From: Acidimicrobiia bacterium
Lineage (GTDB): Bacteria; Actinomycetota; Acidimicrobiia; Spongiisociales; UBA5794
Length of the DNA stretch: 64,000 bases
Direction: 5' to 3'
Assembly (NCBI GenBank): GCA_035458525.1
Contig: DATHZQ010000014.1
Span: 2,860 to 66,859, forward strand
A model generated the notes under the pieces. The model saw only the letters and a list, made by a program, of their open reading frames with translations. It made no database searches and was not told the origin of the DNA. A program made the translations under genes and the position numbers. Of the stretch, positions 15,771 to 45,818 are shown piece after piece. Each line of letters opens with the position of its first letter. Position 1 is the stretch's first letter.

Positions 15771-15942
15771 TGCAATCCTCCGGGTTGCTACCTCGCGACG
15801 ATGGTGCCGTTCCCTGTGCACGATCGCAACCGACATACCCCGACGCGGCACGCCCACCGAACGTATACTCCCCTCCGTTCCGCTGAGTGAATCGTTCCAC
15901 TCTGCGGAACGGTCGTCCTGGATCCGTCGGGGAGGAGCGAGC

Positions 15943-18351: not shown

Positions 18352-19916
18352 TGGCGGCTCCGGAGCGGCGGCGGAGCGGAGGAAGATCCGCTCGGATCGC
18401 AGCTCGCAGCGCAGGGGTGCCCGATGAGGAGCGGGCGGTGCGGCCGGGGCAGCTCGGTGGCGCCTACCAGCCGCTCACCGACGCCGACTGTGTCCGGGTC
18501 TACGAGACGGCGTTGACGCTGCTCGAAGAGCTCGGCATGGGCGACCCGATCCCTGAGTTCATCGAAGCCGTAACGTCCGCCGGCGGCTTCCTCGACGAGA
18601 ACGATCGGCTGCGCTACCCACGCCACGTCGTCGAGCAGGCCATCGAGACCGCGGCGAAGTCGTGGGTGTGGCACGGCATCGACGAGGACCGGAGCATCGA
18701 GCTGTCCGACCGTAAGGTGCATTTCGGCACGGCCGGCGCCGCCGTGCTGATGCTCGACCACGAGACCCAGCGCTTCCGCCGTTCGACCACCGCAGACCTG
18801 TTCGATCTGGCCCGCCTCGCCGATACCCTCGACAACATTCATTTCTTCGCAAGGCCGGTGGTGACCGGCGACGCCGAGACTTCGCGCGAGCTCGACGCCA
18901 ACACGGCCTACGCCACGATGGCGGGCACGACGAAGCCGATCGGCACGTCGTACTTCCGGCCCGAACACGTCTACGAGTCCGTCGAGATGTTCGACCTCGT
19001 GCTCGGTGGCGAAGGCGAATTCAGACGGCGACCGATCGTGTGCGCCAACAACACCTTCGTGGTGCCGCCGCTGCGTTTCTCCATCGACTCGGCGGAATGC
19101 ATGGTCGCCCAGGTGCGGACCGGTATGCCGATCAACCTGCTCTCGGCCGGGCAGGCCGGGGCGACCTCCCCGGCGGCGCTGGCCGGATCGCTGGCGCAAT
19201 CGCTCGCCGAGTGTCTTGCTGCGTTGACTTCGGTGAACTTGCTGTCGCCGGGGCATCCCTGCGTCATGGGTTTGTGGCCGTTCGTGTCCGATCTGCGTAC
19301 CGGGGCGATGAGCGGCGGCAGCGGGGAAGAAGCAGTGCTCGCAGCTGGTGCAGCGCAGGTCGCCAACTGGCTTGGTCTGCCGTCCGGGGTGCCCGCGGGC
19401 ATGGCCGACTCCAAGGTCGCCGATGCCCAGGCGGGTCACGAGAAGGGCCTGACGGTGGCGCTGGCGGCCAACGCCGGCGCCAACCTCGTCTACGAATCCG
19501 CAGGGATGCTGGCGTCGTTGCTTGCCTGTTCGCTCGAGATGATGGTGATCGACAACGACTTGCTCGGTGCGGTGAACCGCACCGTCCGTGGCATCGACGT
19601 CACGGACGACTCGCTCGCTGCCGAAGTGATTGCCGACGTCGTGGCTGGTGCCGGTCACTTCCTCGGGCATGAGCAGACCCTCAATCTGATGCAGCGTGAA
19701 TACCTCTATCCGGAGGTCGGGGATCGCCTCAGCCCTGACGATTGGGTCGATGCGGGAGCGACGACGGTGGCCGAAAGGGCGCGGCATCGCGTCGAGACCA
19801 CGCTCGCCAGTCACTACCCGCGCCACCTCAGCCCTGCGGTCGACGCCAGGATCCGCGAGCGGCTGCCGATACTGCTCGACCCGGAAGCCCTCACGGGAGC
19901 AGACCGACGATGGTGA
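18351..19916 (+). CDS. MttB-superfamily methyltransferase, non-pyrrolysine member (quaternary-amine:corrinoid methyltransferase-like)
   Basis: ATG 18351 overlaps the upstream stop (TGATG). N-terminus [16 protein letters not shown]...[28 protein letters not shown], and the ~520-aa length are typical of MttB/MtgB-family proteins. There is no in-frame TAG. Confidence 0.8.
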
Positions 19917-24403: not shown

Positions 24404-24616
24404 GCACTCTCCCGTGGGCCGGTGAATCAGGGGAGGCCGCACAGACTTCTTCGCCCTCGAGGTAAAGGGCGTCCCTCGGCGCCGTCGTGTAGACACTATC
24501 CGACCCGGGGCCAATGTCCGCGTACCTCGCGGGAAAGTAGGCTACTTCGCATGGGCTCGGGCGGGTCTTGGACCGGGGCCCCGGCACCCGCGATCGGCAG
24601 GAAGCAGGGAGAAAGT

Positions 24617-30202: not shown

Positions 30203-31363
30203 TCAGCCGCCGCGGGGCCGCAGCATGGCGCGCGAGATGATGTGACGCTGGATCTCGCTCGTGCCGTCCCAGATGCGGTCGACACGGGTGTCACGCCACA
30301 TGCGTTCCAGCGGCAGCTCGGTCATCAGACCCATGCCCCCGAAGATCTGAACCGCCTCGTCGGTCACGAACGTGCACATCTCGGTGGCGAACACCTTGGC
30401 CATGGCGGCGTCGCTGTCGGTCATGGTGCCCTGGTCGTCCTTCCACGCCGCCCGCAGCGTCAGCAGTTCCGCAGCGTCGTACTGGGTTTGCATATCGGCG
30501 AGCTTGAACGACACACCTTGGAACTTGCCGATCTGTTGTCCGAACTGCTCCCGGTTGGCTGCCCAGTCGGTGGCGAGATCGATGGCGCGACGGGCCCGTC
30601 CGAGGCAGATCGCGGCTACCTGGAGTCTGGTGGATCCCAGCCATTCGTTGGCGACATCGAAGCCGCGGTGCACCTCGCCGAGCACGGCGGACTCCGCCAC
30701 GCGGCAGTTCTCGAACGTGAGAATGGCGTTGTGGTAGCCGCGGTTGCTCACGGCGTCGTAGCCTTTCGTCACGGTGAGTCCTGGCGTGTCGAAGTCGACG
30801 AGAAATGCAGTGATCCGCTTCCGCATCCCGCGGCTGGTCTCCTCTTCCCCGGTTGCCGCGAACACGATGACGTAGTCGGCGAGGTCGGCGTGGCTGATGA
30901 AGTGTTTGGTCCCGTTGATGACGAAGTTGCGGCCGTCGGCGTCGGCGCGGCACTTCATCCCCCGGACGTCCGATCCTGCATCCGGTTCGCTCATCGCCAG
31001 GCAGTCGACCCGCTCGCCGCGAATCGTCGGCAGCAGGTAGCGCTCTACCTGTTCCCCGGTACAGGCGTTAAGAATGTTCGACGGTCGGGCCACGATGTAG
31101 TGCAAGGCATAGGACGTGGCGCCGAACTCGCGGTCCACCAGAGTCATGGTCAGCGAATCGAGACCGCCGCCGCCCAGCTCTGCGGGCATGTTGGCGGCGT
31201 AGATGCCGGCCTGCAGCGCCCGGGTGCGGATCTGCTCTACGAGCTCTGGCCGTACCTCGTCGGTGCGCTCGACCTCTTCCTCGTACGGCATCAGCTCCTG
31301 CTCGGTGAAACGCCGCGCCGTGTCGACGATGAGCTTCTGTTCATCGGTCAGGGCAAAGTCCAT
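30203..31363 (-). CDS. Acyl-CoA dehydrogenase (CaiA / gamma-butyrobetainyl-CoA dehydrogenase-like by context)
   Basis: 386-aa ACAD: MDFALTDEQKLIVDTARRF...CLAMSEPDAGSDV...FGQQIGKFQGVSFKLADM...IWDGTSEIQRHIISRAML. The start overlaps the upstream stop by 1 nt (TGATG). Confidence 0.85.
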   Translation of the reverse strand: MDFALTDEQKLIVDTARRFTEQELMPYEEEVERTDEVRPELVEQIRTRALQAGIYAANMPAELGGGGLDSLTMTLVDREFGATSYALHYIVARPSNILNACTGEQVERYLLPTIRGERVDCLAMSEPDAGSDVRGMKCRADADGRNFVINGTKHFISHADLADYVIVFAATGEEETSRGMRKRITAFLVDFDTPGLTVTKGYDAVSNRGYHNAILTFENCRVAESAVLGEVHRGFDVANEWLGSTRLQVAAICLGRARRAIDLATDWAANREQFGQQIGKFQGVSFKLADMQTQYDAAELLTLRAAWKDDQGTMTDSDAAMAKVFATEMCTFVTDEAVQIFGGMGLMTELPLERMWRDTRVDRIWDGTSEIQRHIISRAMLRPRGG

Positions 31364-32823
31364 CAGCGAAATCCCATCGTTGGCGTGGCGGGCGATTCGA
31401 GTCGGGCGTGGGCGGCAACGACCGCCTGCACGGCCTGGCGGACGGCCGGCGGCACCGGCGCCGACCTGCCGGCGGTGGTGTCGACATGAAGGAGCATCTG
31501 CTCGACCGTCGCAAGCCGGCGTTGATCGGCGGCGTGGGTGATCTCGTGGACGAAATGCAGCCGCTTGGCGTCGGCCCCGAGGACGGTCGTGACGAGGTCG
31601 AGCGGGTCATCGACCGAGGCTTCTCCGAGGAACCCGATGTGGGTCTCGACGGTGTAGTACGAGTGCCCGGCGGCCCGGTAGTCCTCGTCGATGCCGAGGT
31701 AGCGGAACAGCTTGTCCGAGGCCCAGCCCGCCGCGAGCAGGTAGGCGCTCTCGGTCATGTGGCCGTTGTAGTCGACCCATTCGGGCTCGACGACGCAGGA
31801 ATAGAGCCGCAACGGAGCTGCGACGCTCGCACCCTCGGCCCACACCGCCGGATCGGCGCCGTGCACTCGGGCTTCGTGGCGGGCCATGACGCGGCCGGCG
31901 CCGATGTCGTGGGCACGTAGCGCCCGCATCACCGAAACGAGGTAGTCGTCGCGGAGGCGCTCCAGCTCCACGATGGAGCGGCCCGCAGCCTGGGTCTCCG
32001 CCCCGGTCGCCATCCGATCGATGAGCTCGGGGGTCAATGGCGGGGCCTCGAGCTTGGTCCACGGCAGCTCCAGCGCCGGCCCGAAGTGCTCGAGCATGTA
32101 GCGCATGCCGCCGTCCCCGCCGGCCAGGTGGAAGGTGAGGTTGGTGCCCATGCCGGCCCAACGCAGCCCCGGTCCATAGGTGACGGCGGCGTCCAGCTCC
32201 TCGGTGGTGGCGATGCCGTCGTTGACGAGATGGAGGATCTCCCGCCACATCGCTTCTTGGAGCCGGTCCGACAGATAGCCCTCGATCTCGTTGCGGACGA
32301 CGAGGGGTTCCATGCCGAGGTCGGCGTAGAAGTCCCGAGCTCGCTGGACGGTGCCGGCCGAGGTGTCCCCGCCGGGCACCACTTCGACGAGGGGCAAGAG
32401 GTATACCGGGTTGAACGGATGGCCGACGACGAATCGCTCCGGGCGCTGCAGAGCCGCTTGCATGTCGGACGGGAGTAAACCGGACGAGCTCGAGGCGATG
32501 ATGACCTCTGGTCGGGCGGCCGCATCGAGCTGGCGGTGCACCGGCGCCTTGATGTCCGGGTTCTCCGGCACGTTCTCCTGGATGAAGTCGCTGGCGGCGG
32601 CGACCGCTGCGGGGGATTCGGCCCACCCGACACGGGTCGGGTCGGCTCCGGGCAACAGGCCGAGCTTGCGTGCAGCCGGCCAGGCCCGTGCGATGCCGGC
32701 CCGGAACCGTGCCTCGGCTCCTTCGGCGACGTCGCTGGCGATGACGGTATGTCCGCGGGCCAGCGCCCGCACCGCCCAGCCGGTGCCGATGACCCCGGTG
32801 CCGATCAGCCCGACGGTCGTCAT
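31363..32823 (-). CDS. lcdH: L-carnitine dehydrogenase (3-hydroxyacyl-CoA dehydrogenase fold) fused to a C-terminal hotdog thioesterase domain
   Basis: ATG 32823 (MTTVGLIGTGVIGTGWAVRALARGH...FVVGHPFNPVYLLPLVEVV...). The C-terminal ~150 aa (LYSCVVEPEWVDYNGHMTESAYLLAAGWASD...YTVETHIGFLGEA) is 4HBT-like. Track ORF 31363..33315 is 5'-extended. Confidence 0.8.
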   Translation of the reverse strand: MTTVGLIGTGVIGTGWAVRALARGHTVIASDVAEGAEARFRAGIARAWPAARKLGLLPGADPTRVGWAESPAAVAAASDFIQENVPENPDIKAPVHRQLDAAARPEVIIASSSSGLLPSDMQAALQRPERFVVGHPFNPVYLLPLVEVVPGGDTSAGTVQRARDFYADLGMEPLVVRNEIEGYLSDRLQEAMWREILHLVNDGIATTEELDAAVTYGPGLRWAGMGTNLTFHLAGGDGGMRYMLEHFGPALELPWTKLEAPPLTPELIDRMATGAETQAAGRSIVELERLRDDYLVSVMRALRAHDIGAGRVMARHEARVHGADPAVWAEGASVAAPLRLYSCVVEPEWVDYNGHMTESAYLLAAGWASDKLFRYLGIDEDYRAAGHSYYTVETHIGFLGEASVDDPLDLVTTVLGADAKRLHFVHEITHAADQRRLATVEQMLLHVDTTAGRSAPVPPAVRQAVQAVVAAHARLESPATPTMGFR

Positions 32824-33428
32824 GCAGGCACCAGCGGCACGTCGAAGAGCAGTCCCCACTCCTGGCGGGCCCACAACCCCACGGTGGCGTGGATCGAGCC
32901 CTGCTTGTTCTCGAACGTGGCTCGGTCGGCGAGGGGTAGCGGCGCCGTGTGCCACACGCCGGGATGCATGTTCACGCCGAACGCACCGTCGGAGTACAAG
33001 GCCACGAAGTCTTCGGGGGCGACGTCGTCGCCGGGCGGGGCGAGCAGGAACACGGTGGGTACTCCGGGGGCGAAGAAGGCCTGGCCGCCGTCGTCGTGGT
33101 AGTTGACCTCGTCCACGAGGAGCCGGCTGTGGTCGATCGCGGTCCGTGTTTCGCTTGCCTCGGTTGGATCGACCCGCCAGCCGAGTAGGTCGCTGCGCCC
33201 CACGGCGTTGTTCCGGGAGAACATCATCTCGCCGCGCCAGAAGATGTCGAACGGCCCTTCGACCGTGTGCCCGTAGCCGCCGCTCGTGACGGGCCGCCGC
33301 CCTGACGGCCGCCACTGCACCTGCTCGATCTCGACCTCGTCGATCGAGCGGAACAGTGTGCCGAGGCCGACCGCCGTCTCCTCGTTCAGCGGTAGCAGCG
33401 GGACCGGGTGGAGGTCAGAAGGCGACAT
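32820..33428 (-). CDS. Ureidoglycolate-lyase-like (cupin-related) family protein, function in this operon unknown
   Basis: ATG 33428 (MSPSDLHPVPLLPLNEETAVGLGTLF...). The segment ...FVALYSDGAFGVNMHPGVWHTAPLPL... resembles the ureidoglycolate lyase family core. The assignment is tentative. Confidence 0.45.
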   Translation of the reverse strand: MSPSDLHPVPLLPLNEETAVGLGTLFRSIDEVEIEQVQWRPSGRRPVTSGGYGHTVEGPFDIFWRGEMMFSRNNAVGRSDLLGWRVDPTEASETRTAIDHSRLLVDEVNYHDDGGQAFFAPGVPTVFLLAPPGDDVAPEDFVALYSDGAFGVNMHPGVWHTAPLPLADRATFENKQGSIHATVGLWARQEWGLLFDVPLVPA

Positions 33429-34344
33429 TCTCGAGGCCCTTGAGGTCGAGGATCTCGCGGGCCTCCTCGGACGTTGCGACTTCGCGCGACAGTTCGTCGA
33501 GGATGCGGACCATCTTCGCCACCTGCTCCTCGTTGGAGTCGGCGAGCCGGCCCTTGCGCAGGTAGATGCCGTCCTCGAGGCCGACCCTGACGTGGCCGCC
33601 GAGCACCGCACCCGCCGTGACCAGATCGAACTGATGGCGGCCGCTGCCGAGGATGGACCACTGGATGTCGTCGCCGAAGAGGCGGTCGGCCACCGTCTTC
33701 ATCGCCACGACGTTTTCGACGTCCGGTCCGATGCCGCCGAGCGTCCCCATGACGAACTGCATGAAGATCGGCGGCTTGACCAGGCCTTGGTCTGCGTAGA
33801 ACGCAAGGGTGTAGAGATGCCCGATGTCGTATGCCTCGAACTCGAATCGGCATCCCGTTTCCTCGGTCAGCTCGGTCAGCATGTACTCGATGTCGGAGAA
33901 GCGGTTGACGAACGGTTCGGTGCGGGTGCTCTCGAGGAACGGCTCCTCCCAGTCGTACTTCCAGCGGCCTTCGTACTTGGGGATCATCTGGAACAGTCCG
34001 TAGTTCATCGTGCCGAGGTTGCAGGTGGCAAGCTCGGGCTTGAGCTGCCTGATGACGTTGAGCCGTTCCTCGATCGTCTGGCCGGTGGCGCCACCGGTCG
34101 TGATCGAGATGACGGCGTCGCACTGATCTTTGATGCCTGCGCAGTACTCGCGGAACAGTCCGACATCTGCGGTGGGGCGGCCGTCGAGCGGATCCCTGGC
34201 GTGGATGTGGATGATGGCGGCGCCCGCCGTGTGAGCCGCCACCGACTGCTCGACGTGATCCTCGACCGTCATCGGGATCTGGTTGTTCATGGTGGGGGTG
34301 TGCGACGCCCCGGTTACCGCGCAGGTGAGGATGACGTTGCTCAT
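33415..34344 (-). CDS. BKACE-family enzyme (beta-keto acid cleavage; dehydrocarnitine cleavage enzyme by context)
   Basis: ATG 34344 (MSNVILTCAVTGASHTPTMNNQIPMTVEDHVEQSVAAHTAGAAIIHIHARD...ITTGGA...LGSGRHQF...GGHVRVGLEDGIY). Classic DUF849/BKACE TIM-barrel motifs. 309 aa. Confidence 0.85.
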   Translation of the reverse strand: MSNVILTCAVTGASHTPTMNNQIPMTVEDHVEQSVAAHTAGAAIIHIHARDPLDGRPTADVGLFREYCAGIKDQCDAVISITTGGATGQTIEERLNVIRQLKPELATCNLGTMNYGLFQMIPKYEGRWKYDWEEPFLESTRTEPFVNRFSDIEYMLTELTEETGCRFEFEAYDIGHLYTLAFYADQGLVKPPIFMQFVMGTLGGIGPDVENVVAMKTVADRLFGDDIQWSILGSGRHQFDLVTAGAVLGGHVRVGLEDGIYLRKGRLADSNEEQVAKMVRILDELSREVATSEEAREILDLKGLENVAF

Positions 34345-35468
34345 GAGAGGCGGAACTCCCCGCCCTTGCGCTCGAGCACGCGCAGCCGGCTCATGAAGTC
34401 GTCTCGCTCCACGTAGGTTCCCTGGAGGTGGCGAGGGCCGGTGTTGGGGTCGAACTCGTTGCGAGCGTGGAGCACGCGACGGTTGTCGAACACCTGGCAA
34501 TCGCCCGGCTCCATCTTGAAGACGTACTCGAGCTCCGGGTCACGCAGGATCATCCCCAACGTGCGCCAAGCCGCATAGAAGGGCTCGATGAGCTCCGGGT
34601 CGAGGTCGATCGCACCCAGCAGGGCACTGTGGAAGCGCACCTCGACGTGCTCGCCGTCGCCGTCGACGACGATCACTCGCTGATGGTTGCGGACGTCGTG
34701 CCCGTCGTCCACGAAAACGTACGGCACTTCGACCGTGGCCAGCAGCTCATGCATCTCGGGATGCTGCGTGCGCAAGCGGCGGGCGGCTTCGAAACCGTCG
34801 ACGAGGATGCTCTCGCCGCCCTCGGCCTCGAACTCGATGCAGTGCAGGAACTGCAGACCGGGCAGGTTGCGCCGGTTGGGGACGTCGGTGTGCGCGTTGA
34901 GCTTCACCGACGTGTAGGCCAGGTTCTCCGGGTCTGGCTTCGAGATGACCTGGAACTCACGCCCGAAGTGGGTTTCCTGGATGAAGGCAATGCGGTTGGC
35001 CAGCTCGACGACGGCACCGACACGAGTCGGCACGTCTTTCACGATGGCGAAGCCGTAGTCGCGAATCATGGTCAACCACCGGCGCAGCCCGTCGTCGCCG
35101 CTATCGATCTCGTCGAGCGAGATCGTCGGCGGCGAGTTGGCGATGTCGGCGATCCACAGGTTGGGGGACTCTCGCCGCTCCGCCCGCCCCACGGGGCCGT
35201 AGCGGTTGGCGCGCAGCCAGCCGGTGCTGAGCGAGGTGCGGTGGCCATCCGGCCAGGTCGCCTCGAGGCGCTCGCCGAGCGTGATCTCCGCGGGCCGCAC
35301 GTCCGGGTCGAGCCGGACGTTGTCGAGCAGCCGTTCCCAGGCGTCGGGATGCTTGCAGTCGGCGCATGCACAGTTGTCGCGCAGCCAGACGTAGTGGAAA
35401 TCGTCGGCAGCTCCGTCTTCCCACGCAACGGTCACCGTCCGCTCGCCTACGTTGGTGATCCTCGCCAC
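34341..35468 (-). CDS. Gamma-butyrobetaine dioxygenase (BBOX; TauD/TfdA Fe(II)/2-oxoglutarate oxygenase with N-terminal Zn/DUF971 domain)
   Basis: GTG 35468. N-terminal part: VTVAWEDGAADDFHYVWLRDNCACADCKHP. Catalytic part includes LNAHTDVPN (HxD) and ...FDNRRVLHARNEF. 375 aa. The stop overlaps the BKACE start (ATGA). Confidence 0.85.
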   Translation of the reverse strand: MARITNVGERTVTVAWEDGAADDFHYVWLRDNCACADCKHPDAWERLLDNVRLDPDVRPAEITLGERLEATWPDGHRTSLSTGWLRANRYGPVGRAERRESPNLWIADIANSPPTISLDEIDSGDDGLRRWLTMIRDYGFAIVKDVPTRVGAVVELANRIAFIQETHFGREFQVISKPDPENLAYTSVKLNAHTDVPNRRNLPGLQFLHCIEFEAEGGESILVDGFEAARRLRTQHPEMHELLATVEVPYVFVDDGHDVRNHQRVIVVDGDGEHVEVRFHSALLGAIDLDPELIEPFYAAWRTLGMILRDPELEYVFKMEPGDCQVFDNRRVLHARNEFDPNTGPRHLQGTYVERDDFMSRLRVLERKGGEFRLS

Positions 35469-35479
35469 GCGTCCTCCCT

Positions 35480-35513
35480 GTTCTGCTGTGCGGAACGTGC
35501 TGTTCTACGGAAC
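35480..35513. promoter_or_regulatory. Two GTTC-N-GAAC type palindromic sites in the BBOX/IclR divergent region (candidate IclR operator)
   Basis: GTTCTGCTGTGCGGAAC (35480-35496) and GTTCTACGGAAC (35502-35513) lie in the 66-nt gap between the divergent starts at 35468 and 35535. Confidence 0.3.
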
Positions 35514-35534
35514 GCGGGCTACCGTACACATCGC

Positions 35535-36317
35535 ATGACGAGCCAGTCAATCAATTCTGGGCCTCAGACCGTTGTCGCCGTCGAGCGAGCGTTCTCGATC
35601 CTGCAGACGATCGCTGCGGAGCAGCAGAGCATGGGCATCAGTGCCATTGCCCGCTCTACAGGACTGGCCAAGAGCACGGTGTCGCGCCTGCTGACCACGC
35701 TCGACCAGCTGGGCATGGTCGAGCGGATCGGCGTTGACGGTCGCTACCAGCTGGGACCCGGTCTGACCGTGCTGACGCCACGCTCGACGTCATCCCTCGT
35801 TGATCTCGCACGGCCTCACCTGCGGGCGCTCGTGGACGAAGTGGGTGAAGACGCCGGTCTCGCCGTGAGCGACGGCGTCGACGTGCTGTACGTCGACCAA
35901 GTGCAAGGTCCGGGTGCCGTGCAGGTACAGGATTGGACCGGGCACCGGCTGCCGGCCCATGCCGTTGCCGCCGGGTACGTGCTGATGCGCAGCTGGTCGG
36001 TGGAGAAGCTGGATGTCTTCCTGGCGGGCACGCTCGAGCCGCTGGCGCTGCGCACGGTGGTCGACCCGGACGAGATCCGCCGGCGGGTGGCCACGTGGTC
36101 CGGCTACGTGTGGACCCGTCTCGAGTACGCCGACGATGTCAACGGTGCAGCAGCGCCGATCTACGGGGCCGACGGGAGCATCTTGGCTGCGGTCAACCTG
36201 TACGGTCCCTCGTACCGCTTCCCTGGTGAGCGGTCCGAGACTGCGATCGGTGCCCTCCTCGCAGAAGCCGGCCGCAAGATCTCCCAGCATCTGGTGACAC
36301 TCTCGACGGAGGGTTGA
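35535..36317 (+). CDS. IclR-family transcriptional regulator
   Basis: ATG 35535 (MTSQSINSGPQTVVAVERAFSILQTIAAEQQSMGISAIARSTGLAKSTVSRLLTTLDQLGMVER...). wHTH plus IclR effector domain, 260 aa. Track ORF 34428..36317 is a 5'-extended artefact. Confidence 0.85.
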   Translation: MTSQSINSGPQTVVAVERAFSILQTIAAEQQSMGISAIARSTGLAKSTVSRLLTTLDQLGMVERIGVDGRYQLGPGLTVLTPRSTSSLVDLARPHLRALVDEVGEDAGLAVSDGVDVLYVDQVQGPGAVQVQDWTGHRLPAHAVAAGYVLMRSWSVEKLDVFLAGTLEPLALRTVVDPDEIRRRVATWSGYVWTRLEYADDVNGAAAPIYGADGSILAAVNLYGPSYRFPGERSETAIGALLAEAGRKISQHLVTLSTEG

Positions 36318-36440
36318 GCCGACGATCCGCGGCCTTCGACGCGGAGCCGTGTAGGCGTCGACCCTTGTGCGAGTGATTCGTGTATCAGACGCGCGGTTCG
36401 GTCGTCCCTTTCACGACCGCCCGCCGCGAAGGGATCTGTC

Positions 36441-37620
36441 ATGACGATCCGGTACCGACGCAACATCGACTGTCTTTCTCAGAATCAGCTACACGATCTA
36501 CGCGAGGCGTATCAGGGGCTCTACGACATGCCGGAGGTGGCAGCCGACAGCTTCGCCACGTTGGGCGGTATCCATGGACTTCCGAGCCCGACTTGGTGCG
36601 ACCACGGGGATCCGGGATTCCTGACGTGGCATCGGGCGTACATGCGTGCGTTCGAGAAGGCGCTGCAGTGCGTCGACTCAGATGTGATGTTGCCGTTCTG
36701 GGATTGGTCGAGCGGGCCTTCCACAGGGTTCCGGTGGCGTGCTCCGCCCTACCTATGTCAATCGGAACGGCAACGAAGTGCCCAAACCGCTCCATAGCGG
36801 CCCGATCGCTGCTGGAGCCGGAGGGGGAGCGACGGCTCGGCGGCCCGACATCGCGACGACTTCGTTCGCGGGCCTGGCGGCCTCGGCCCAGTCTGCACTG
36901 GCGGCCTCTGACCTTGCGACCTTCCAGACAGACATCAACGGACCGCATGGTTGGGTGCATGGCCTCGTTGGAGGGCAAATGGGGTCTGTTGCGTATGCGG
37001 GGTTCGATCCGATCTTCTTCCTTCACCATTGCAACGTCGACCGTCTCTGGTGGAATTGGCAGCGCGCAAATCCCGGCGCATCGCTTCCGGCCAACGAGGC
37101 GGTCCACCAGCTGGCTCCGTTCAATCGACCATTCAGCACCGACTGGTACGTCGGAGCCGACGTGGAATCCACCGATGACCTCGGCTACCGCTATCTCAAC
37201 TGGTGCCTCTTCATCCCGCCCATCCTGATCTGGGAAGTTCTCGTGGTGAAGCTTCCCCCCGTGATGCGCCACAGTCTGCGCAGTGCCCGGCTCGTGCCGC
37301 ATTCCCCGCACATGCCGAGAGACTCGGTTGAGTTCCGCGTCTTCGCCAACCAACCTCGGGCCTCACATCGTTCGAAGATCGAGGGCAATCCCTCCTTCGT
37401 CGGTTCGATCGGCACCTTCGGCATGGATCCGGTCAAGATGGAGTCCCGCTCGACGAGTACGACGTTCGACCTCGGCATCAATCTCACCGAGCATGTGATG
37501 GCAGCGCTCGCCGATGAGGCCGACGAGCTGAAGCTGAAGATCGTGGCGGTCAATCCCGACGGTGAACCAATCGACGCCGAGCGGCTTGACGTCGACGAGA
37601 TCGAGCTGATCTTCGAGTAG
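36441..37620 (+). pseudogene. Tyrosinase / polyphenol oxidase (type-3 copper) interrupted by a frameshift near 36720-36790
   Basis: The CuA half is in frame 3 (36441-36797: ...HGLPSPTWCDHGDPGFLTWHRAYMRAFE...LPFWDW). The CuB half and C-terminal domain are in frame 1 (36739-37620: ...GPHGWVHGLVGG...DPIFFLHHCNVDRLWWNWQ). The two ORFs overlap and need a net +1 shift to join. Confidence 0.7.
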
Positions 37621-38094
37621 GGGAGGCGAGGCTCCGCAGTTCGCCGGGCGACCGGCGATCGGCTCCGGGTAGCCGCCTGCTCACACCACGATCGGACATG
37701 CGCCACACTCGACGTCGGATCGGAGCCCAGGAAGAGATGTCGCGTGAGGCGCTCGTTCCGGATCGCGGCGCCTGATCCGATCTCGCTGTGCTGAACTTGG
37801 GGTTCGGCGGCGGCGCACAGGTGAAGCTGATGAGGAGAGATGTGAAGTGGGCGAGCTGAATATCCCCCTCGACGGTGAGGTTTGGACGGTCCGCCTGCTC
37901 CGAACAGCAGGGGCCGAGAAGCGGCGATCGGGGAAGGTACGCGGCGTGCCTGCGTGGGAAAGGGGAGAGGGAGACCATTCGGTGTGGTGGCGGAGCGTCT
38001 GGCGGACGTTGTTCGAGGGTCAGCGGCTTGCGAGCAACGGCGCGGCGTTGTTGGTGTCGGCACGCTCCGAGCGGGTTGGGCCAGAGGCCGGACA

Positions 38095-39426
38095 GTGAGT
38101 GGCCCCTTCGGCGACTCGCTGATCACTGGGAGACACCGCGCCAAGATCGGAGCGCATCAGCGGGCGTCCGAGGAGACTCTGGCGGCGGCTCGGCTCAACC
38201 TCCACATGCTCGGACCCGGCGAGCCGGCGCTCTCGGAGTGGGCGGCGGCCGGTTTGTCGACGCCTGATCTCGATGCGATCCGCTCATACCGGTTGGAGCG
38301 AGTCCGCCGCCAACTCGTCGGGATGGACTACGCCGGCGTGCTGCTCTACGACCCCGTCAACATTCGCTACGCAACCGACAGCACGAACATGCAGTTGTGG
38401 GTGGCGCACAACCCGACTCGGTACGCCCTGGTGCTCGCAGATGGACCGGTGATCGTTTGGGATTACATGACCTCGGAGCACCTGTCGGCGCACCTCGACC
38501 TGGTCGACGAGATGCGGACCGCTGTCCAGTGGATGTATCAGTTTGCCGGTGCCGAGACCGAGCGCAATCTTGCCCGCTGGGCGGCGGAGATCGCCGACAT
38601 CGTCGACACCTACGGCGGCGGCAACCGCCGGCTGGCCATCGACCGGGCCAACCCCGTTGCGATCCTCGCGCTCGATCGGCTCGGCATCGACGTACGCAAC
38701 GGTGAGGAGGTGATGGAGCTGGCCCGTGCCGTGAAGTCAGCGGACGAGATCGTGGCGATGCGCTGCGCCATCCACGCCTGCGAGACTGCGATGGACAAGA
38801 TGTACGAGGCCCTGGCCCCGGGGATGACCGAGAACGAGGTGTGGGCGGTCCTCCATGCCGAGAACATCATCCGTTTCGGAGAGTGGATCGAGACCCGGCT
38901 GCTGTCCAGCGGACCGCGAACCAATCCCTGGTTCCAGGAGAGCTCGAGCCGCGTGATCGAGGCGGGCGACATCGTCGCCTTCGACACGGATCTCATCGGT
39001 GCGTACGGCTATTGCGTCGACATCTCCCGGACGTGGATCGCCGGCAGAATGGCGCCCACGCCGCACCAGCGAGACGCTTGGGAGCGAGCCGCAGAGCAGA
39101 TCCGGCACAACACGGACCTTCTCGGGCCCGGCGTGACGTTGAAGGAGCTCACGTTCGGAGCGATGGAGCAGGATACGGACCAGTTTCGCCGCTACTCGGT
39201 GCAGTACCACGGCGTCGGCTTGGCGGACGAGTGGCCGAGCGTGTACTTCCGTGACTCATGGGACGAGGTCGGCGTCGACGGCGTCTTGCAGCCCGGCCAG
39301 GTGATCTGCGTCGAGGCCTACGTCGGCCGTCGCGACAGGCCCGAGGGTGCCAAACTCGAGGAGCAGGTGCTCATCACCGAGACCGGCCGGCAGGTGCTCT
39401 CGACGTATCCGCTGGAGCTTGGCTAG
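38095..39426 (+). CDS. M24-family metallopeptidase-fold enzyme, DddP-like (DMSP lyase-like) / creatinase-like
   Basis: Candidate start GTG 38095; ATG 38206 is an alternative. LLYDPVNIRYATDSTNMQLWVAHNP...VWDY, ...SADEIVAMRCAIHACE..., ...FDTDLIGAYGYCVDISRTW..., ...YHGVGLADEWP..., ...KLEEQVLITETG. This is the pita-bread fold with metal ligands and resembles DddP as I recall it. Confidence 0.7.
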   Translation: MSGPFGDSLITGRHRAKIGAHQRASEETLAAARLNLHMLGPGEPALSEWAAAGLSTPDLDAIRSYRLERVRRQLVGMDYAGVLLYDPVNIRYATDSTNMQLWVAHNPTRYALVLADGPVIVWDYMTSEHLSAHLDLVDEMRTAVQWMYQFAGAETERNLARWAAEIADIVDTYGGGNRRLAIDRANPVAILALDRLGIDVRNGEEVMELARAVKSADEIVAMRCAIHACETAMDKMYEALAPGMTENEVWAVLHAENIIRFGEWIETRLLSSGPRTNPWFQESSSRVIEAGDIVAFDTDLIGAYGYCVDISRTWIAGRMAPTPHQRDAWERAAEQIRHNTDLLGPGVTLKELTFGAMEQDTDQFRRYSVQYHGVGLADEWPSVYFRDSWDEVGVDGVLQPGQVICVEAYVGRRDRPEGAKLEEQVLITETGRQVLSTYPLELG

Positions 39427-40346: not shown

Positions 40347-40685
40347 ATGTCTGACAAACCTTCGGCAACCGTGATGTTGGATGTCGAGAGCGAGGTCGAG
40401 GTCCCGGCCGACGGCACGCTCAGCCGGGTGCTGTACCGGGACGAGACCATTCGTGTTGTGGCGTTCGCCTTCGACGAGGGTCAAGAGCTCACCGACCATA
40501 CGGCGGCGAGGCCCGCCATCGTGCAGGTCGTGTCAGGTCGGATCCGGCTCGACCTCGACGGCGACCCGGTCGAGCTCGAGCCCGGATCGTGGGTTCGGAT
40601 GGCTGCCGGTCTGACCCACGCGGTCCTGGCTCTTGAACCGAGCGTGATGCTCCTCACGTTGGTAGGAACCCCAGTGGCGAGCTGA
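40347..40685 (+). CDS. Cupin-domain protein
   Basis: 112 aa. ...VVAFAFDEGQELTDHTAARPAIVQVVSGRIRLDLDG...PGSWVRMAAGLTHAVLA is a cupin_2-type two-motif pattern. Confidence 0.65.
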   Translation: MSDKPSATVMLDVESEVEVPADGTLSRVLYRDETIRVVAFAFDEGQELTDHTAARPAIVQVVSGRIRLDLDGDPVELEPGSWVRMAAGLTHAVLALEPSVMLLTLVGTPVAS

Positions 40686-40739
40686 GCGCTGACCCCATCG
40701 ATCCCCAGAGGTGTCGCGCCCGTCCCCACGCATCTTGGA

Positions 40740-42506
40740 TCAGGGTCGAGATGTCAGGTCGATCGTGAGCGACGACTGCCCCGGATCTCGCCATCGCGCC
40801 TGCATACCTTGCTCCTCTGCTGCGGCGATCGCGGCGTCCCGCTGCAGGCGGTAGCGCTCGTTCCGATGCTCCCGCCGAGTGAAGTACGCCTCGTACCCGT
40901 CGTCATCACGGGCCTCGGCTAGCTGCTCGATGACGTTGGGTGACGGCAGCATGTGGCGGTCGTTGCACTGGAAGAGGTAGCGGTTCGCCTTCATCGCCTC
41001 GAAGAAGCTGGTGTCGACGTTGTGCTTGCTGCCGTAATGCGGCACCGTGAGCAGATCGAGTGGTGATCCATCGAGACGATCCAACAAGCCGGCCTGGGCG
41101 GCGGCAGGGATGAGATCTTCGCCGGCGGCGTCGGACGTCAGCAGCGCCTTCCGGCTCGAATATTCCAGGAGCACCACGATGCTTGCCCGGTTTCGGTGGC
41201 TTGCTTCGATGCTCGCGCCGGGATCGAGGTCCGGGACTCGGACAGGTTGGGGGAGGAGGTAGATCTCGCGGCTCGACACGGTCTCGATGGCGTCTGCGGC
41301 AATGGGGACGTCGGGCAGCTCCCGCCCGTTGCGCTCCATGGCCTTGGCCACCTCACGGATCCAGTAATCGGCGAATGCACCTCGCGGCCCGAGGACAGTG
41401 AGAACGAGGCCTCCCTCGAGTTCAACCTGAGGAGCGCCGACTCGAGGCTGGCTCACAAAGCGATCGAATGGCTCGTTGACCGGGAGACCCAGCCGGCGGG
41501 CGAGGTGGGGGACCTGCAATGCGCTCATCACCGGTTGGGCGTCGGGATCGTAGGTATCGAAAGGGTCGAAGGTGTTGGTCCAGAAGCGGCGGATGTCAAT
41601 ATGGGGGCCGTCACCCTCGAGCATCTCGCCCAGCAGCCGCTGGATCCCCCCGGATTCTCCTTCGTCGGCTTGAGTAGAGATGATCGCCGCCAGTTCGAGG
41701 CGTCCGTCGGAGCCGTGCTCGGCTGCCAGCTCAGTCAGCCGCGGCCGCAGGCGCCTGGCGTACGTCGCCCGCGGTCCACCATCGATCAGGATGAATCGGC
41801 GTTCGGCCGCCGTGCCGTAATGCACCAGCAAGGAGCTCCCGTACGGCAGGTCCAGCGCTTCGATCGCAAAGACTGGCTGCCGAGTGCGTGCTCCGGCAAC
41901 TGCCGGTTCCGGCCGCTGAGGACCGCGATTCCGCAGTGCGGTGGTGCGATCCGCCAAGTCGGTCATCTGGGCGCGATACTTGCGCACCAGCATCGCGATC
42001 TCCGGGTCGTCACCGCGTTCCACTTCCAGCCGCAACGCCTCGGCTTTGTTGAGCGCAGCGAGCGCGTCGAGCCGGGCTACCTCCGCATCGTGCAGCAGCG
42101 CCATGGTGCGCTCGAGCTCCAGATACCGCACGCTGGTTTCTGCCAGTGCGACCCCTGCGGTGATTCGGGCGATGGCGCGCTCGCGCTCGACGGGGTCTTG
42201 AGACCAGTTGACCCACTGTGCATTGGGCCAGCGATCACCGACCGGCTCCGGCAGCGGCGCCTTGGCAGGGTCGCCGGCGTTGATGATGATCGGTGCGATG
42301 TCCGGCCGGTAGGAGAGCCACCACTCGATCTCGTCGAAGAGAAAGTCGACTCCATCTCGTCGTGATGCTGTGCCCGGCGAGCACACCAGGATGAAAGCGC
42401 GTGCCGTCCTCAGCTCGCCATCCCAAATCTGTTGCCAATCTCCGACTGCCGCTGCCGCTTGATCCCAGTATGTGGTGAGCGTGGCTTCCTGTCCGTCCAG
42501 TGCCAT
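40740..42506 (-). CDS. TIR-like / coiled-coil / metallo-beta-lactamase-fold (ComEC-type, eroded HxHxDH) protein; coordinates are from the first canonical ATG, and the TIR-like sequence continues upstream (see finding)
   Basis: The N-terminal part (ARAFILVCSPG...DFLFDEIEWWL) matches the distal half of a TIR domain. The middle is Ala/Arg/Glu-rich helical. The C-terminus reads FAIEALDLPYGSSLLVHYG...RFILIDGGP...IISTQADEGESGG...LLTSDA...LLTVPHYGSKHN, an MBL-fold order. Confidence 0.6.
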   Translation of the reverse strand: MALDGQEATLTTYWDQAAAAVGDWQQIWDGELRTARAFILVCSPGTASRRDGVDFLFDEIEWWLSYRPDIAPIIINAGDPAKAPLPEPVGDRWPNAQWVNWSQDPVERERAIARITAGVALAETSVRYLELERTMALLHDAEVARLDALAALNKAEALRLEVERGDDPEIAMLVRKYRAQMTDLADRTTALRNRGPQRPEPAVAGARTRQPVFAIEALDLPYGSSLLVHYGTAAERRFILIDGGPRATYARRLRPRLTELAAEHGSDGRLELAAIISTQADEGESGGIQRLLGEMLEGDGPHIDIRRFWTNTFDPFDTYDPDAQPVMSALQVPHLARRLGLPVNEPFDRFVSQPRVGAPQVELEGGLVLTVLGPRGAFADYWIREVAKAMERNGRELPDVPIAADAIETVSSREIYLLPQPVRVPDLDPGASIEASHRNRASIVVLLEYSSRKALLTSDAAGEDLIPAAAQAGLLDRLDGSPLDLLTVPHYGSKHNVDTSFFEAMKANRYLFQCNDRHMLPSPNVIEQLAEARDDDGYEAYFTRREHRNERYRLQRDAAIAAAEEQGMQARWRDPGQSSLTIDLTSRP

Positions 42507-42965
42507 TGGTCGGCCGTCGAGGTTCTCGAAGAGCCACTCTGCGCACTCGCTACCTTCGGGGCCTTTGTCGTTCCCCTGGCGATAGGCGATGAAGATTGCG
42601 ACCTCTTGATCGTCGGTTTGTGTCGAATCAGCCGTCGCAGACTCCTCCGTACTTGGTGTCAGGCTAGGTCGAGGAGAACGCCGCAGGGCCGGTGACGCGC
42701 CGGCCCTGGCCTGCCACCGGCAGGCAACTGGCGCTCAGGTGTCCGCACACCCCGGCACGCCCAGCAATAGTGGGTCGTCGAGGGGCTCGCACGCCAGGCT
42801 TCATCCACACCGCCAGCCTCTGGTCCCGGACCTCAGCGGTCTGCGGTTCGAGCTCGCAGATCGTGGGCGTCGTTCGTCCAGCATCTCGATGCTCGGCGTC
42901 GCGCGGAACGATCATCCGCAGCTCGCTCAACCAACCCAGAGAGGACTCGATACGATGACACGGGT

Positions 42966-45818
42966 ATGGAGTGCAGGATCCTGGGCGAGCTCGAAATCCT
43001 CCTCGACGGCGATCGAGTCGAACTCGGTTCCCCCCGTCAGAGGGCTCTCGTCGCCCGCCTCCTGGTCAACGCATCTGAACCCGTATCGACCGACCGACTC
43101 ATCGAAGACCTGTGGCGAGGCGAGCCGACCGATACGGCACGGCACGCGCTCCACGTGTATGTGTCGCGCCTGCGGAAGGCACTGGGGCCTTGCCGGGACC
43201 GGCTCCTGCGAAATCGATCCGGCTATCGGCTCGTAGTGGAAGGCGACGAGCTCGATGCCGCGAAGTTCGAGCGCCTGGCGCGCGAGGGCCGGGCTGCTCG
43301 CAGCCGCCATGACGCCGCGATGGCGAGCTCGAAGTTGGAGGAAGCGCTGCGTATGTGGCGTGGAGCGCCGTTTGCGGAATTCGCCGGGGAGGCGTTCGTC
43401 CGGGACGAAGCGGTGAGACTCGAGGAGCTGAGGCTGGCGTCGTTGGAGCAGCGAATCTGGGCGGACCTCGAGCTTGGTCGGCATGAAGACATTGTCGAGG
43501 AGCTCCAGGAACTTACCGCCCAGCACCCGTTCCGGGAATGCTTCTGGGAGCAGCTCATGCTCACCCTCTATCGCGGAGGGAGGCAGGCAGAGGCCCTGCG
43601 TACCTACCAGAAGGTGCGACTGTTTCTCGCCGACGAGCTCGGTATCGACCCGGGACCCGCCCTCGCTCGCATGGAACAGCGCGTTCTGGCCCAAGACCCG
43701 GAGCTCGAGCGGCGGCCGGGGTCAACGGCACGCGCCTCACCGGGTGCGCTGCCGCCGCAGCGCACCAGCTTCGTGGGGAGAAGACGCGAACTCGAGAAGG
43801 TGGCGAGGTTGCTTTCCGCGTCCCGATTGTTGACCCTCACCGGACCTCCCGGCTCAGGCAAGACTCGCCTTGCGCTCGAACTGGCGGCAGAACAGATGAG
43901 CCGCTTTGCGCACGGCGCATTCTTCGTCGCGCTTGCCGCGGTCAGCGACCCCCGCCTGATGAGCAACACGATCGCCGGCGTTCTCGACCTGCACGACCGT
44001 CCCGGTGAGACGGCCTTGGAAGGTATTACGTCGTTCCTGCGCGACCGCCAGGCGCTGCTCGTGCTCGACAATTTCGAACAGATCCTCCCTGCAGCACCGC
44101 AGGTGGGAGAGCTACTCGATGCTGCGCCGAGTCTCACGATCATGGTCACCAGTCGAGCATCGCTCGGTATTGCAGGGGAGCAAGAATATGCGGTGCCACC
44201 TCTGCAGCTACCGGTCGACGATGGATTCGCGGATCCGGAGGCAATCGCCGACTATGACGCCGTTGCGCTCTTCGTCACCCGGGTGTGCGCCGTCGACCCT
44301 GACTTCAAGCTCGACGCTGGGAACGCCTCGGACGTTGCTCAGCTCACCGCTCGGCTGGATGGGCTGCCGCTTGCGATCGAGCTTGCCGCCGCTCGGATCA
44401 AGATGTTGACCCCCGGGGCGATGCTCGGCCGGCTCGAGCAGCGTCTCACCCTCCTCACGGCGGCGCCTGCAGACTCGACCGACCGCCATCGCACGATGCG
44501 AGATGCCATTGGGTGGAGCTACGACCTGCTCGAACCTTCGGAACGGGCGCTGTTCAGGCGTCTCGGGGTCTTTCGGGGAGGCTTCACGCTGGAGGCGGCG
44601 ACGGCAGTGGCTGATCCTTCGGGCTCGGACATCTTCGGCAGTGTCGAGGCGCTGCTCACCCGGAGTCTCCTCTACCGCCCGGCTGCGACCGGCCCGGCTC
44701 GCTATGCGATGCTCGAGACGATCAGGGAATTCGCTCAGGATCAGCTGGCTGCGGCCGGTGAGCAACAGGAGGTCGGAAGCCGGCACGCCAACTACTTCCG
44801 CCGACTGGCAGAGGACACCGAGCCGCACCTCACGTTGGAGCCAGCAGGAGGCGGATCGCAGCAACTGAGCGCAGAAGTGGACAACATCCGTGGTGCCCTC
44901 CGGTACGCCCTCGATGCCGGCCAACCTGACCTCGGCCTGAGGCTGGCGAGCTGCATCTGGAGGCATTGGCAGAGTTCCGAACAACTGGCCGAGGGGAGGG
45001 ATTGGCTCGAGGAGCTGCTCGCCCACCCCAGAGCGTCGGCTGCGGCACGGGCTGCCGGCCTGACTGCGCTGGCAGGCCTGGCTTATTGGCAAGCCGACTA
45101 CGACGAATCCTGGGTCAGATATGAGGAGGCGCTCGACGTGTTCCGCTTCCTCGGCGATCGGCTCAACGAAGCAGACACCCTCTTCTCCATGAGCGTGACG
45201 GCGAACTGGCGTGGCGAGGTCGAGGTCGGGGAGCGCCTTGCCGAGACAGCACGATCGCAGTTCGAGGAGCTGGGATCTCGCGAAGGCGTCGGCAGGGCTC
45301 TGATGGCTCAGGGCTTCTCCCGGTTCAGGCGCAAGGAGTTCGCATCGGCCCAGGAGCTGTATGAGGAGTCTCTGGTCATCGCCCGCACCTCTGGCGATCA
45401 ACCGCTTGCCGCAACGCTTCTGCTCGGCATCGCCGCCTTCGTGTTCCACCAAGGCGACCTGAAGCGTGCGTTGTCGATGCTCCTCGAAGCAGTTGGGGAG
45501 GCAACCGAGCTGCACAACGCCCACCTGACCGTGTGGATGCTCGACTTCGTCGCAGCGTTCGCCGCGTCCACCGCTCCCGAGGAGGCGGTGCGTCTTGCCG
45601 GTGCGGTGCACTCGCTCCGTGAAGCCGCAGGCGGGGGGATGCGGCCCGAGGCGCTCGACGTCGAGAATGCCCGGTCGGCCGCGGCGCGGGTGCTTGCGCC
45701 GGCGCAACTGAACCAGGCCTGGGCACAGGGGCGTGAGCTGAGCCTGGCAGAAGCGGTGAGCCAGGCCCACCTCCTCAACGACCTTGTCACGGGTATGGCA
45801 TGCCGAGGAGATGCATGA
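42966..45818 (+). CDS. SARP/AfsR-type regulator: OmpR-like winged helix, BTAD, NB-ARC-like STAND ATPase and TPR
   Basis: MECRILGELEILLDGDRVELGSPRQRALVARLLV...YVSRLRKAL (wHTH). BTAD region ...ALRMWRGAPFAEF...LYRGGRQAEALRTYQ. P-loop LTLTGPPGSGKTRLALELA and LLVLDNFEQ. C-terminal TPR-like repeats. 950 aa. Confidence 0.85.
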   Translation: MECRILGELEILLDGDRVELGSPRQRALVARLLVNASEPVSTDRLIEDLWRGEPTDTARHALHVYVSRLRKALGPCRDRLLRNRSGYRLVVEGDELDAAKFERLAREGRAARSRHDAAMASSKLEEALRMWRGAPFAEFAGEAFVRDEAVRLEELRLASLEQRIWADLELGRHEDIVEELQELTAQHPFRECFWEQLMLTLYRGGRQAEALRTYQKVRLFLADELGIDPGPALARMEQRVLAQDPELERRPGSTARASPGALPPQRTSFVGRRRELEKVARLLSASRLLTLTGPPGSGKTRLALELAAEQMSRFAHGAFFVALAAVSDPRLMSNTIAGVLDLHDRPGETALEGITSFLRDRQALLVLDNFEQILPAAPQVGELLDAAPSLTIMVTSRASLGIAGEQEYAVPPLQLPVDDGFADPEAIADYDAVALFVTRVCAVDPDFKLDAGNASDVAQLTARLDGLPLAIELAAARIKMLTPGAMLGRLEQRLTLLTAAPADSTDRHRTMRDAIGWSYDLLEPSERALFRRLGVFRGGFTLEAATAVADPSGSDIFGSVEALLTRSLLYRPAATGPARYAMLETIREFAQDQLAAAGEQQEVGSRHANYFRRLAEDTEPHLTLEPAGGGSQQLSAEVDNIRGALRYALDAGQPDLGLRLASCIWRHWQSSEQLAEGRDWLEELLAHPRASAAARAAGLTALAGLAYWQADYDESWVRYEEALDVFRFLGDRLNEADTLFSMSVTANWRGEVEVGERLAETARSQFEELGSREGVGRALMAQGFSRFRRKEFASAQELYEESLVIARTSGDQPLAATLLLGIAAFVFHQGDLKRALSMLLEAVGEATELHNAHLTVWMLDFVAAFAASTAPEEAVRLAGAVHSLREAAGGGMRPEALDVENARSAAARVLAPAQLNQAWAQGRELSLAEAVSQAHLLNDLVTGMACRGDA

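Follow-up and report, generated by a model that had tools for sequence, protein, structure and literature searches.

Probable recent loss of the start codon from a gene for a predicted TIR, coiled-coil and metallo-beta-lactamase-like protein in an Acidimicrobiia contig

Where does translation begin in a gene whose first canonical start codon lies inside its first domain? The question is raised by a minus-strand gene of an Acidimicrobiia bacterium (assembly GCA_035458525.1, contig DATHZQ010000014.1), in a stretch of 64,000 nucleotides (positions 2,860 to 66,859 of the contig) that we call the window and whose own coordinates are used throughout. The frame encodes a TIR-like domain, a coiled-coil-type linker and a C-terminal domain of the metallo-beta-lactamase (MBL) fold. 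A first-pass annotation, made from the sequence alone, had noticed that the first ATG falls within the TIR-like domain and had offered a rare start codon, a lost start or a sequence error as explanations. The evidence presented here favors a recent loss of the start codon, with the gene silenced or strongly down-tuned (probability about 0.6). A codon-by-codon listing reproduced the coordinates and codons first reported (TGA 42737-42735, the 76 codons, ATG 42506, the CTG, ACG and ATC codons, and GGAGGAG 42648-42642). Between TGA 42737-42735 and TGA 40742-40740 there are 664 sense codons, spanning 42734 to 40743. ATG 42506-42504 is codon 77 and the first ATG, GTG or TTG of the frame; all 76 sense codons of 42734-42507 were listed and none of the three was found. 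The near-cognate codons upstream of ATG 42506 are CTG 42686 and 42662, ACG 42650 and 42635, and ATC 42596 and 42590. The features of the frame and its 5' end are as follows.

42735 to 42737, minus strand: in-frame TGA that closes the frame upstream (codon listing).
42642 to 42648, minus strand: GGAGGAG, similar to a Shine-Dalgarno (SD) sequence, 3 nt before GCG 42638 and 6 nt before ACG 42635.
42507 to 42638, minus strand: 44 conserved codons without a canonical start, covering TIR strand betaA (VAIFIAY) and helix alphaA (ECAEWLFENL), from alignments with orthologues and SARM1, an AlphaFold2 (AF2) model and substitution rates.
42636 to 42638, minus strand: GCG (Ala), the putative former start codon, matching an in-frame GTG of the sister lineage (L001:2295-2297).
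42633 to 42635, minus strand: ACG, near-cognate candidate for a weak start, 6 nt after the SD-like heptamer.
42594 to 42596, minus strand: ATC, near-cognate codon inside betaA and second candidate for a weak start, with AAGAGG 5 nt upstream.
42504 to 42506, minus strand: ATG, the first canonical start, inside the TIR domain and without an SD; it is the gene callers' choice and gives a 588-aa product (P0001).
40740 to 40742, minus strand: stop codon TGA (frame reading).

The N-terminal domain can be assigned as a genuine SARM1-like TIR. Its position and its key residue are:

42195 to 42608, minus strand: SARM1-like TIR domain, residues 11-148 counted from GCG 42638 (profile, model, Foldseek and phmmer).
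42330 to 42332, minus strand: GAG, the invariant Glu of FDEIEWW, paired with the Glu of SARM1 DWVHKEI in the hmmsearch alignment.

Searched against PDB, a profile of ten N-terminal domains (A3) aligned with the SARM1 TIR over the full extent of the domain (E 6e-8; profile positions 7-148, chain residues 7-140), and betaA and alphaA of the window protein paired with those of SARM1. This bears out the TIR reading of the first-pass annotation. The Pfam model TIR_2 (PF13676), which had been proposed as a check, gave a divided answer: eight of the ten family members matched it (best E 6.5e-8), but the window sequence alone scored 19.4 bits (E 1.6e-3), under the 28-bit gathering threshold. In the AF2 model (mean pLDDT 81.7), strands were placed at residues 11-20, 81-86, 117-120 and 141-144 and helices at 30-40 and 99-110, counted from GCG 42638; on this count the internal Met encoded by ATG 42506 is residue 45. 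Foldseek matched the N-terminal part to the SARM1 TIR at 21-25% identity (E 4e-4 at 25%) and also to SPARTA TIRs; small GTPases scored like TIRs in the same search, and the fold evidence alone is moderate.

A search by word index for homologues of the 165-aa N-terminal domain gave no matches despite the existence of orthologues, a result put down to the sensitivity of the tool, and it was replaced by an exhaustive phmmer search and a metagenome scan. The phmmer search recovered 350 clusters (at 50% identity) with a TIR-like domain, and the match covered betaA in 144 of the best 150 of them, usually within the first 30 residues. The Glu of FDEIEWW was invariant both in A3 and in the alignment of orthologues (A1). 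Its partner in SARM1 DWVHKEI is, by the construct numbering, E642, the catalytic Glu, in agreement with the earlier placing of a Glu at the NADase catalytic position. The window TIR thus appears to keep a catalytic-type Glu and is a predicted NAD+-cleaving effector. The TIR sheet has betaA as its central strand. As the alignments with orthologues and SARM1 both place ATG 42506 inside the domain, just as had been claimed, a product begun there would be without the central betaA and without alphaA, and should for this reason not fold as a TIR.

The same SARM1-like subfamily was seen at four JGI loci (L016, L018, L019 and L022) fused to transmembrane helices or to a conserved GKTDxEMxW PAS-like region. 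It seems to be a modular family of N-terminal effectors that comprises 350 or more clusters at 50% identity. Three members (P0068, P0126 and P0170) begin inside the domain without betaA and may be contig-edge fragments, start miscalls or start losses. Two others beginning VFICYRQ (P0065 and P0171) might have pointed to very short natural N-termini but, as possible contig-edge fragments, were left aside.

Full-length relatives of the window protein formed nine clusters at 90% identity in a search of 5.8 billion proteins: the window's own (P0001, 588 aa), a sister cluster that is 72% identical (P0002, 590 aa), and seven that are 57-60% identical (P0003-P0009, 626-630 aa). The gene call of P0002 also starts at the equivalent internal Met. 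In P0003-P0009 an invariant FIAYRQG follows the initial Met by about 10 residues and leads on to AEWLYENLQGR. The upstream translation of the window, VAIFIAYRQGNDKGPEGSECAEWLFENLDGRP, pairs with these N-termini residue for residue ('S[VIA]FIAYRQG...AEWLYENLQGR'). The start codon was ATG or GTG in the three loci whose DNA was read (L013-L015), and six more distant TIR-domain homologues from JGI metagenomes (L016-L022) had a canonical ATG or GTG a few residues before betaA. The orthologue alignment that had been suggested for the N-terminus therefore shows the upstream segment behind a normal Met, and not orthologues that start at the equivalent of Met 42506 without upstream similarity. At that position P0003-P0009 have Ile, Leu or Val, and the Met is common to the window and P0002.

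Coding sequence does not extend over the whole of the open frame. From GCG 42638 downstream, the GC contents of the three codon positions of the upstream segment were 0.66/0.45/0.68, similar to the 0.72/0.48/0.76 of the rest of the gene, while those of 42734-42639 were 0.69/0.81/0.62, of a non-coding type (0.81 at position 2 vs 0.45-0.48 in the gene); coding-type composition begins at about 42640. No homologue of 42734-42639 was found and similarity ends at 42638. Of the 76 upstream codons, the last 44 (42638-42507) are conserved, and the first 32, which have no homologue and a composition that is not coding-like, are open by chance. GGAGGAG occurs 13 times in 128 kb (both strands), so that the chance of one lying no more than about 10 nt from any given point is about 1e-3. 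Five of the 13 window copies precede the start of a long open reading frame (ORF). As such heptamers also occur inside genes, the copy before GCG serves as supporting evidence only. A scan of 40500-43100 found no promoter or terminator on the strand of the gene, and an Rfam scan found no leader or riboswitch near it.

The sister lineage suggests where the start was. Six P0002 contigs keep the same upstream frame, with in-frame GTGs at L001:2295 and 2280. From L001:2295 onward the two loci align without gaps (VTSDSTRSGGQEVAVFIAY against ATADSTQTDDQEVAIFIAY), and the GTG pairs with GCG 42638-42636, a difference of a single T-to-C transition. The next five codons differ mainly at synonymous positions (ACG/ACA, GAT/GAC, ACA/ACT) and look selected; upstream of the GCG/GTG codon, no similarity between the window and P0002 loci was found. 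P0003-P0009 start five codons further in than GCG 42638, where the window and P0002 both have ACN (Thr). The common ancestor of these two had therefore probably already moved its start to the upstream GTG, and the window lineage appears then to have lost it. The simplest reading of the alignment is thus a GTG-to-GCG loss of the start codon. Among the explanations first offered, the lost start gains a candidate mutation, and the position favored then, ACG 42635, gives way to the adjacent GCG 42638-42636.

Constraint on the 44 N-terminal codons was similar to that elsewhere in the gene. For the window and P0002 (L001), the ratio of nonsynonymous to synonymous substitution rates (dN/dS) was 0.16 in this segment (dN 0.19, dS 1.21), compared to 0.09 in the remaining TIR, 0.07 in the coiled coil, 0.27 in the MBL-like domain and 0.18 in the whole gene. 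Long non-translation on the window branch would give a several-fold higher dN in the segment. At columns invariant in P0003-P0009, the window and P0002 had 1 vs 1 changes in the N-terminal segment and 8 vs 11 in the rest, suggesting that the window lineage is not accelerated and that decay is not long-standing. Because the 44 codons are constrained like the rest of the gene and no acceleration is seen, either the start was lost not long ago or translation of the segment continues.

Under the preferred reading, the gene would encode a protein of about 632 residues in which a SARM1-like TIR is followed by a long coiled-coil linker and, at the C-terminus, a domain of the MBL fold. The native GTG, 15 codons before the Phe of betaA, would have mutated to GCG (42638-42636), leaving no canonical start for the ribosome-binding site and the 44 conserved codons. 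The native start would not be ATG 42506, and any full-length protein would now depend on inefficient near-cognate initiation at ACG 42635 or ATC 42596. Several points weigh against this reading. Only 2 single nucleotide polymorphisms were found in the gene across the five assemblies of the window lineage, which are near-clonal and give no measure of selection after the mutation. In P0002, GTG 2295 is only an inferred start, with a weak SD and another GTG five codons upstream, and the gene caller picked the internal ATG there too. The absence of relaxed constraint and the strong SD fit continued translation just as well. The genes around the window gene are a SARP regulator gene and those of quaternary-amine and carnitine catabolism, with no defence island here.

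That last-but-one point leads to the explanation that survives best beside start loss, namely that near-cognate initiation (ACG 42635 or ATC 42596) is the normal, selected mode of expression and keeps a potentially toxic TIR NADase at a very low level. The GGAGGAG is perfect and ideally spaced, AAGAGG precedes ATC 42596 (initiation there would yield (M)FIAYRQG...), the constraint just described agrees with it, and the window SD, stronger than the weak one of the sister GTG, could be compensatory. However, the absence of a canonical start is not conserved across diverged relatives, as would be expected of a maintained non-canonical start. It was found only in the near-clonal P0001 population, and an ATG or GTG is present in P0002, in P0003-P0009 and in L014-L022, that is, in every other family member examined. 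The simplest history is also a lone T-to-C transition in a canonical GTG, GGAGGAG is found by chance inside genes, and translation table 11 does not list ACG among the bacterial starts. In E. coli, initiation at AUC, AUA, AUU and CUG was 1-2% of that at AUG in a first assay and 0.02-3% in a second, and the remaining codons gave 0.1-1% and 0.01-0.2%; initiation at near-cognate codons was 0.01-3% of the AUG level, and ACG gave full-length green fluorescent protein with an N-terminal Met (bioRxiv 10.1101/063800). Trace expression of the full-length window protein from a near-cognate codon is thus possible. As the selected mode of expression, we regard near-cognate initiation as unlikely.

Another explanation takes the 588-aa product of ATG 42506 as functional: a protein made up of the coiled coil and the MBL-like domain, preceded by a vestigial stub at the N-terminus. 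The ATG is present and is used by gene callers in both the window and P0002, which have the Met in common, and the coiled coil and MBL-like domain would stay intact. Against this, the Ile, Leu or Val of P0003-P0009 makes the Met a conservative substitution, no SD precedes the ATG, the upstream 44 codons are conserved with the dN/dS of 0.16, P0002 has canonical GTGs upstream, and the centrality of betaA means that about 120 residues of unfoldable TIR remnant would remain. We hold this explanation to be very unlikely.

A sequencing or assembly error or a frameshift hiding a canonical start, for example through fusion with the 88-codon TTG ORF (42930-42664) whose frame in another phase overlaps the upstream region, has a next to negligible probability: the 460 nt upstream of ATG 42506 were identical in four of five independent assemblies (L007-L011, from different runs) and the fifth differed only at 42844, well upstream of the coding sequence, so that this equivalent of resequencing revealed no hidden conventional start and removes the sequence error proposed at first; orthologues start about 10-15 residues before betaA with nothing homologous further upstream; no canonical start occurs in any frame within 12 nt after the SD; and the 88-codon ORF, which would begin 36 nt from the divergent SARP start, was rejected as a fusion partner as homology stops at 42638.

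What the lost start would have expressed depends also on the two downstream parts of the protein, which have the following features.

41925 to 42194, minus strand: coiled-coil-type linker with two long helices (residues 149-207 and 212-238; AF2, pLDDT 86-95).
40743 to 41876, minus strand: degenerate MBL-fold domain of the Avs1a/HamM/LmuA (ComEC-related) family (PADLOC, NCBIfam and Foldseek).
41646 to 41678, minus strand: STQADEGESGG, which takes the place of MBL motif 2 (standalone relatives: THIDDDHVAG; A2 alignment).
41037 to 41039, minus strand: CAT, the kept His of PHYGS (PHHGS in relatives; alignments).

PADLOC models matched residues 508-625 (LmuA 5e-21, RTasMBL 1e-12, Avs1a 6e-11), each match covering only the C-terminal third of the model, and the NCBIfam Avs1a model matched residues 510-619 only (8e-15), with 54.5 bits vs a curated cutoff of 420. 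Foldseek matched the C-terminal part to the MBL-fold enzymes Pce and RNase J. Standalone relatives of about 380 aa (P0014-P0021) carry THIDDDHVAG, WHN, LLTGD and PHHGS, and the counterparts in the window family are TQADEGESGG, WTN, LLTSD and PHYGS. Three of the four ligand positions of motif 2 are replaced (H to Q, D to G, H to E), and of the metal-binding motifs (HxDxDH, WHN, D, HH) only D357, D535 and H566 are kept (664-residue numbering). The replacements were invariant in all nine orthologue sequences aligned with that of the window, and the motif 2 residues S, T, Q, D, E, S, G and G were invariant in A1. Because this pattern is common to all orthologues, the domain does not seem to be eroding and is best seen as a conserved pseudo-enzyme or a remodelled site rather than a product of random or ongoing erosion. 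The first-pass description of an eroded ComEC-type MBL is accurate as to fold and degenerate motif 2, but not as to free erosion.

In the linker, AEVARLDALAALNKAE pairs with AEVARLYALSAQNFAE of P0010, and the linker is homologous to that of a group of TIR-STAND-MBL proteins (P0010-P0013). In STAND defence proteins of the Avs type, the C-terminal position is normally that of the sensor. The TIR-STAND proteins have this coiled-coil and MBL module in the sensor position; by analogy, the MBL-like domain of the window protein is most likely a regulatory, sensing or oligomerising module. In P0010-P0013 a hydrophobic helix is a predicted transmembrane segment, and the MBL-like module would sit beyond it. 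A defence function of the window gene is suggested by its domains: the TIR would be the effector, the MBL-like domain would regulate, sense or oligomerise, and the coiled coil would mediate assembly, with NAD+ consumption by the TIR requiring oligomerisation. In Hachiman, AVAST and canu systems, the ComEC-related MBL family has been shown to act as a pro-DNase gated by a protease (PMC12799240). In a more elaborate version, full-length TIR protein would be made from ACG 42635 or AUC 42596 behind the unusually strong SD, holding a self-toxic NADase at trace level, and the ligand-swapped MBL-like domain would be a repurposed protease-gated pro-nuclease that senses for or gates the TIR instead of cutting DNA. 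We consider this version doubtful, a little more so than selected near-cognate initiation taken by itself.

The window gene is an orphan, with a convergent cupin gene on one side and, on the other, a divergent gene for a SARP/BTAD-NB-ARC-TPR transcription regulator of the STAND type (42966-45818). The SARP regulator is not conserved beside any orthologue, and a functional link to it was rejected on this ground. No protease gene neighbour was found in the window, where tblastn with the CHAT-MBL protein of the sister lineage returned only the TIR gene itself; the adjacent trypsin-like or caspase-like protease partner that marks Avs1a/HamM is thus missing from the window. In the P0002 locus, a CHAT-MBL gene lies immediately upstream of the TIR orthologue. 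At L012 the TIR gene is convergent with an MBL gene, and at L013 and L015 it lies among housekeeping genes. Because the neighbours vary among lineages, the TIR/coiled-coil/pseudo-MBL gene appears to behave as mobile and mostly self-contained. The family is very rare in reference genomes: a scan of reference genome contigs found one locus only, a partial gene in a metagenome-assembled genome (MAG) of Acidobacteriota. A precomputed Pfam domain was absent from the database entry of every family member.

Two P0002-lineage loci (L001:2-5368 and L003:1-5613) contain three co-directional genes, for the CHAT-MBL protein, the TIR/coiled-coil/pseudo-MBL protein and a 326-aa TIR_2 protein with a Nuc_deoxyrib_tr-like domain; the TIR/coiled-coil/pseudo-MBL gene is thus flanked by two further genes of conflict type. 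The CHAT (caspase-like) protease-MBL protein has intact THVDADH and HHGS motifs and matched the LmuA model at 1e-61. This trio is possibly an undescribed caspase-nuclease/TIR system.

Further observations concern the rest of the window. The nearest named homologues of the neighbouring aldehyde dehydrogenase are 71-74% identical and come from Acidimicrobiia MAGs, which points to an uncultured actinobacterium as the source. The catabolic cluster (15730-19916 and 31363-39400) includes genes for a DAO plus GCV_T protein (dimethylglycine-oxidase-like, 873 aa), MttB-like, 3HCDH plus thioesterase, TauD/GBBH-like and BKACE proteins, and IclR regulators. Rfam PYLIS_3, the mttB pyrrolysine insertion element, matched 19401-19500 on the plus strand (62 bits) within ORF 18318-19916. 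This 532-aa MttB-family ORF is uninterrupted and without an in-frame TAG; it is probably a non-pyrrolysine MttB-superfamily gene, the match reflecting coding-sequence similarity. A 670-aa ORF at 22502-24514 on the minus strand matched Pfam MATCAP (microtubule-associated tyrosine carboxypeptidase) at E 1e-88, which is unusual in a bacterial genome. A 465-aa ORF at 13790-15187 on the plus strand, about 27 kb from the TIR gene, weakly matched the Macro domain (E 8e-6), a domain that binds or hydrolyses ADP-ribose.

Taken as start loss, this locus is mainly a case of annotation and gene decay and does not overturn current understanding; its significance would be greater if use of a near-cognate codon were true. 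The database entries of P0001 (588 aa) and P0002 (590 aa) would be N-terminally truncated calls that hide a TIR domain. The allele would represent a clean natural loss of a start codon with the ribosome-binding site intact, and could be used to test near-cognate initiation in Actinomycetota-like bacteria. The TIR/coiled-coil/pseudo-MBL architecture is rare, no description of it was found, and it is built from known defence domains. The family connects SARM1-like TIRs with the gated pro-nuclease MBL family, itself characterised recently, and suggests that a nuclease fold may be reusable as a non-catalytic module.

Compared with known systems, the allele resembles start-loss alleles and cases of non-canonical initiation (infC-type AUU; bioRxiv 10.1101/063800) in that one base change removes the start while the SD and the ORF remain intact, and in having near-cognate codons at the right spacing; unlike the infC-type and near-cognate cases, the window gene gives no sign that a weak start is regulated or selected. 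With SARM1 and bacterial TIR NADases, the window domain has in common the full-domain alignment, including betaA VFIxYR and the Glu of DW[LV]xxEI, and a flavodoxin-like alpha/beta model. It differs from SARM1 and TIR_2 in a beta-hairpin insertion (model E44-58) and in the family motifs AVGDW and EIEWWL, besides its sub-threshold TIR_2 score, and its NADase activity is predicted only.

For the C-terminal domain, the relevant systems are those with proteins of the Avs1a/HamM/CanC family (AVAST type 1, Hachiman-MAB, Lamassu, DRT and canu; PMC12799240). The window protein is similar to them in its MBL fold and in the model matches of the C-terminal half of the domain, but its MBL is fused to a TIR, whereas theirs is encoded by a separate gene upstream of a protease fusion. 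The standalone MBL relatives have LIDGGP, LLT.D and PH.GS in common with the window family, in which HxDxDH has become QxDxGE, WHN has become WTN and HHGS has become HYGS, and from which their first insertion is absent. The pairing of TIR and MBL had been placed outside the named defence systems. It is indeed rare, but the MBL belongs to the Avs1a/HamM/LmuA family and the coiled-coil and MBL module is shared with TIR-STAND proteins. The latter (P0010-P0013, about 1100 aa) are 31-35% identical over 57-64% of the query, have an N-terminal TIR, and also have the motif 2 His replaced by Gln. Unlike the window protein, they carry a STAND NTPase (nSTAND1/AAA_16) and the hydrophobic helix between TIR and coiled coil, their TIR, a canonical TIR_2, belongs to another subfamily, and they keep the last His of motif 2. 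An NTPase domain is absent from the window protein, and the STAND NTPase, in the protein or its operon, by which AVAST/STAND membership is judged, was not found. The gene arrangement of the P0002 lineage, in turn, resembles the components of canu and of type IV Thoeris.

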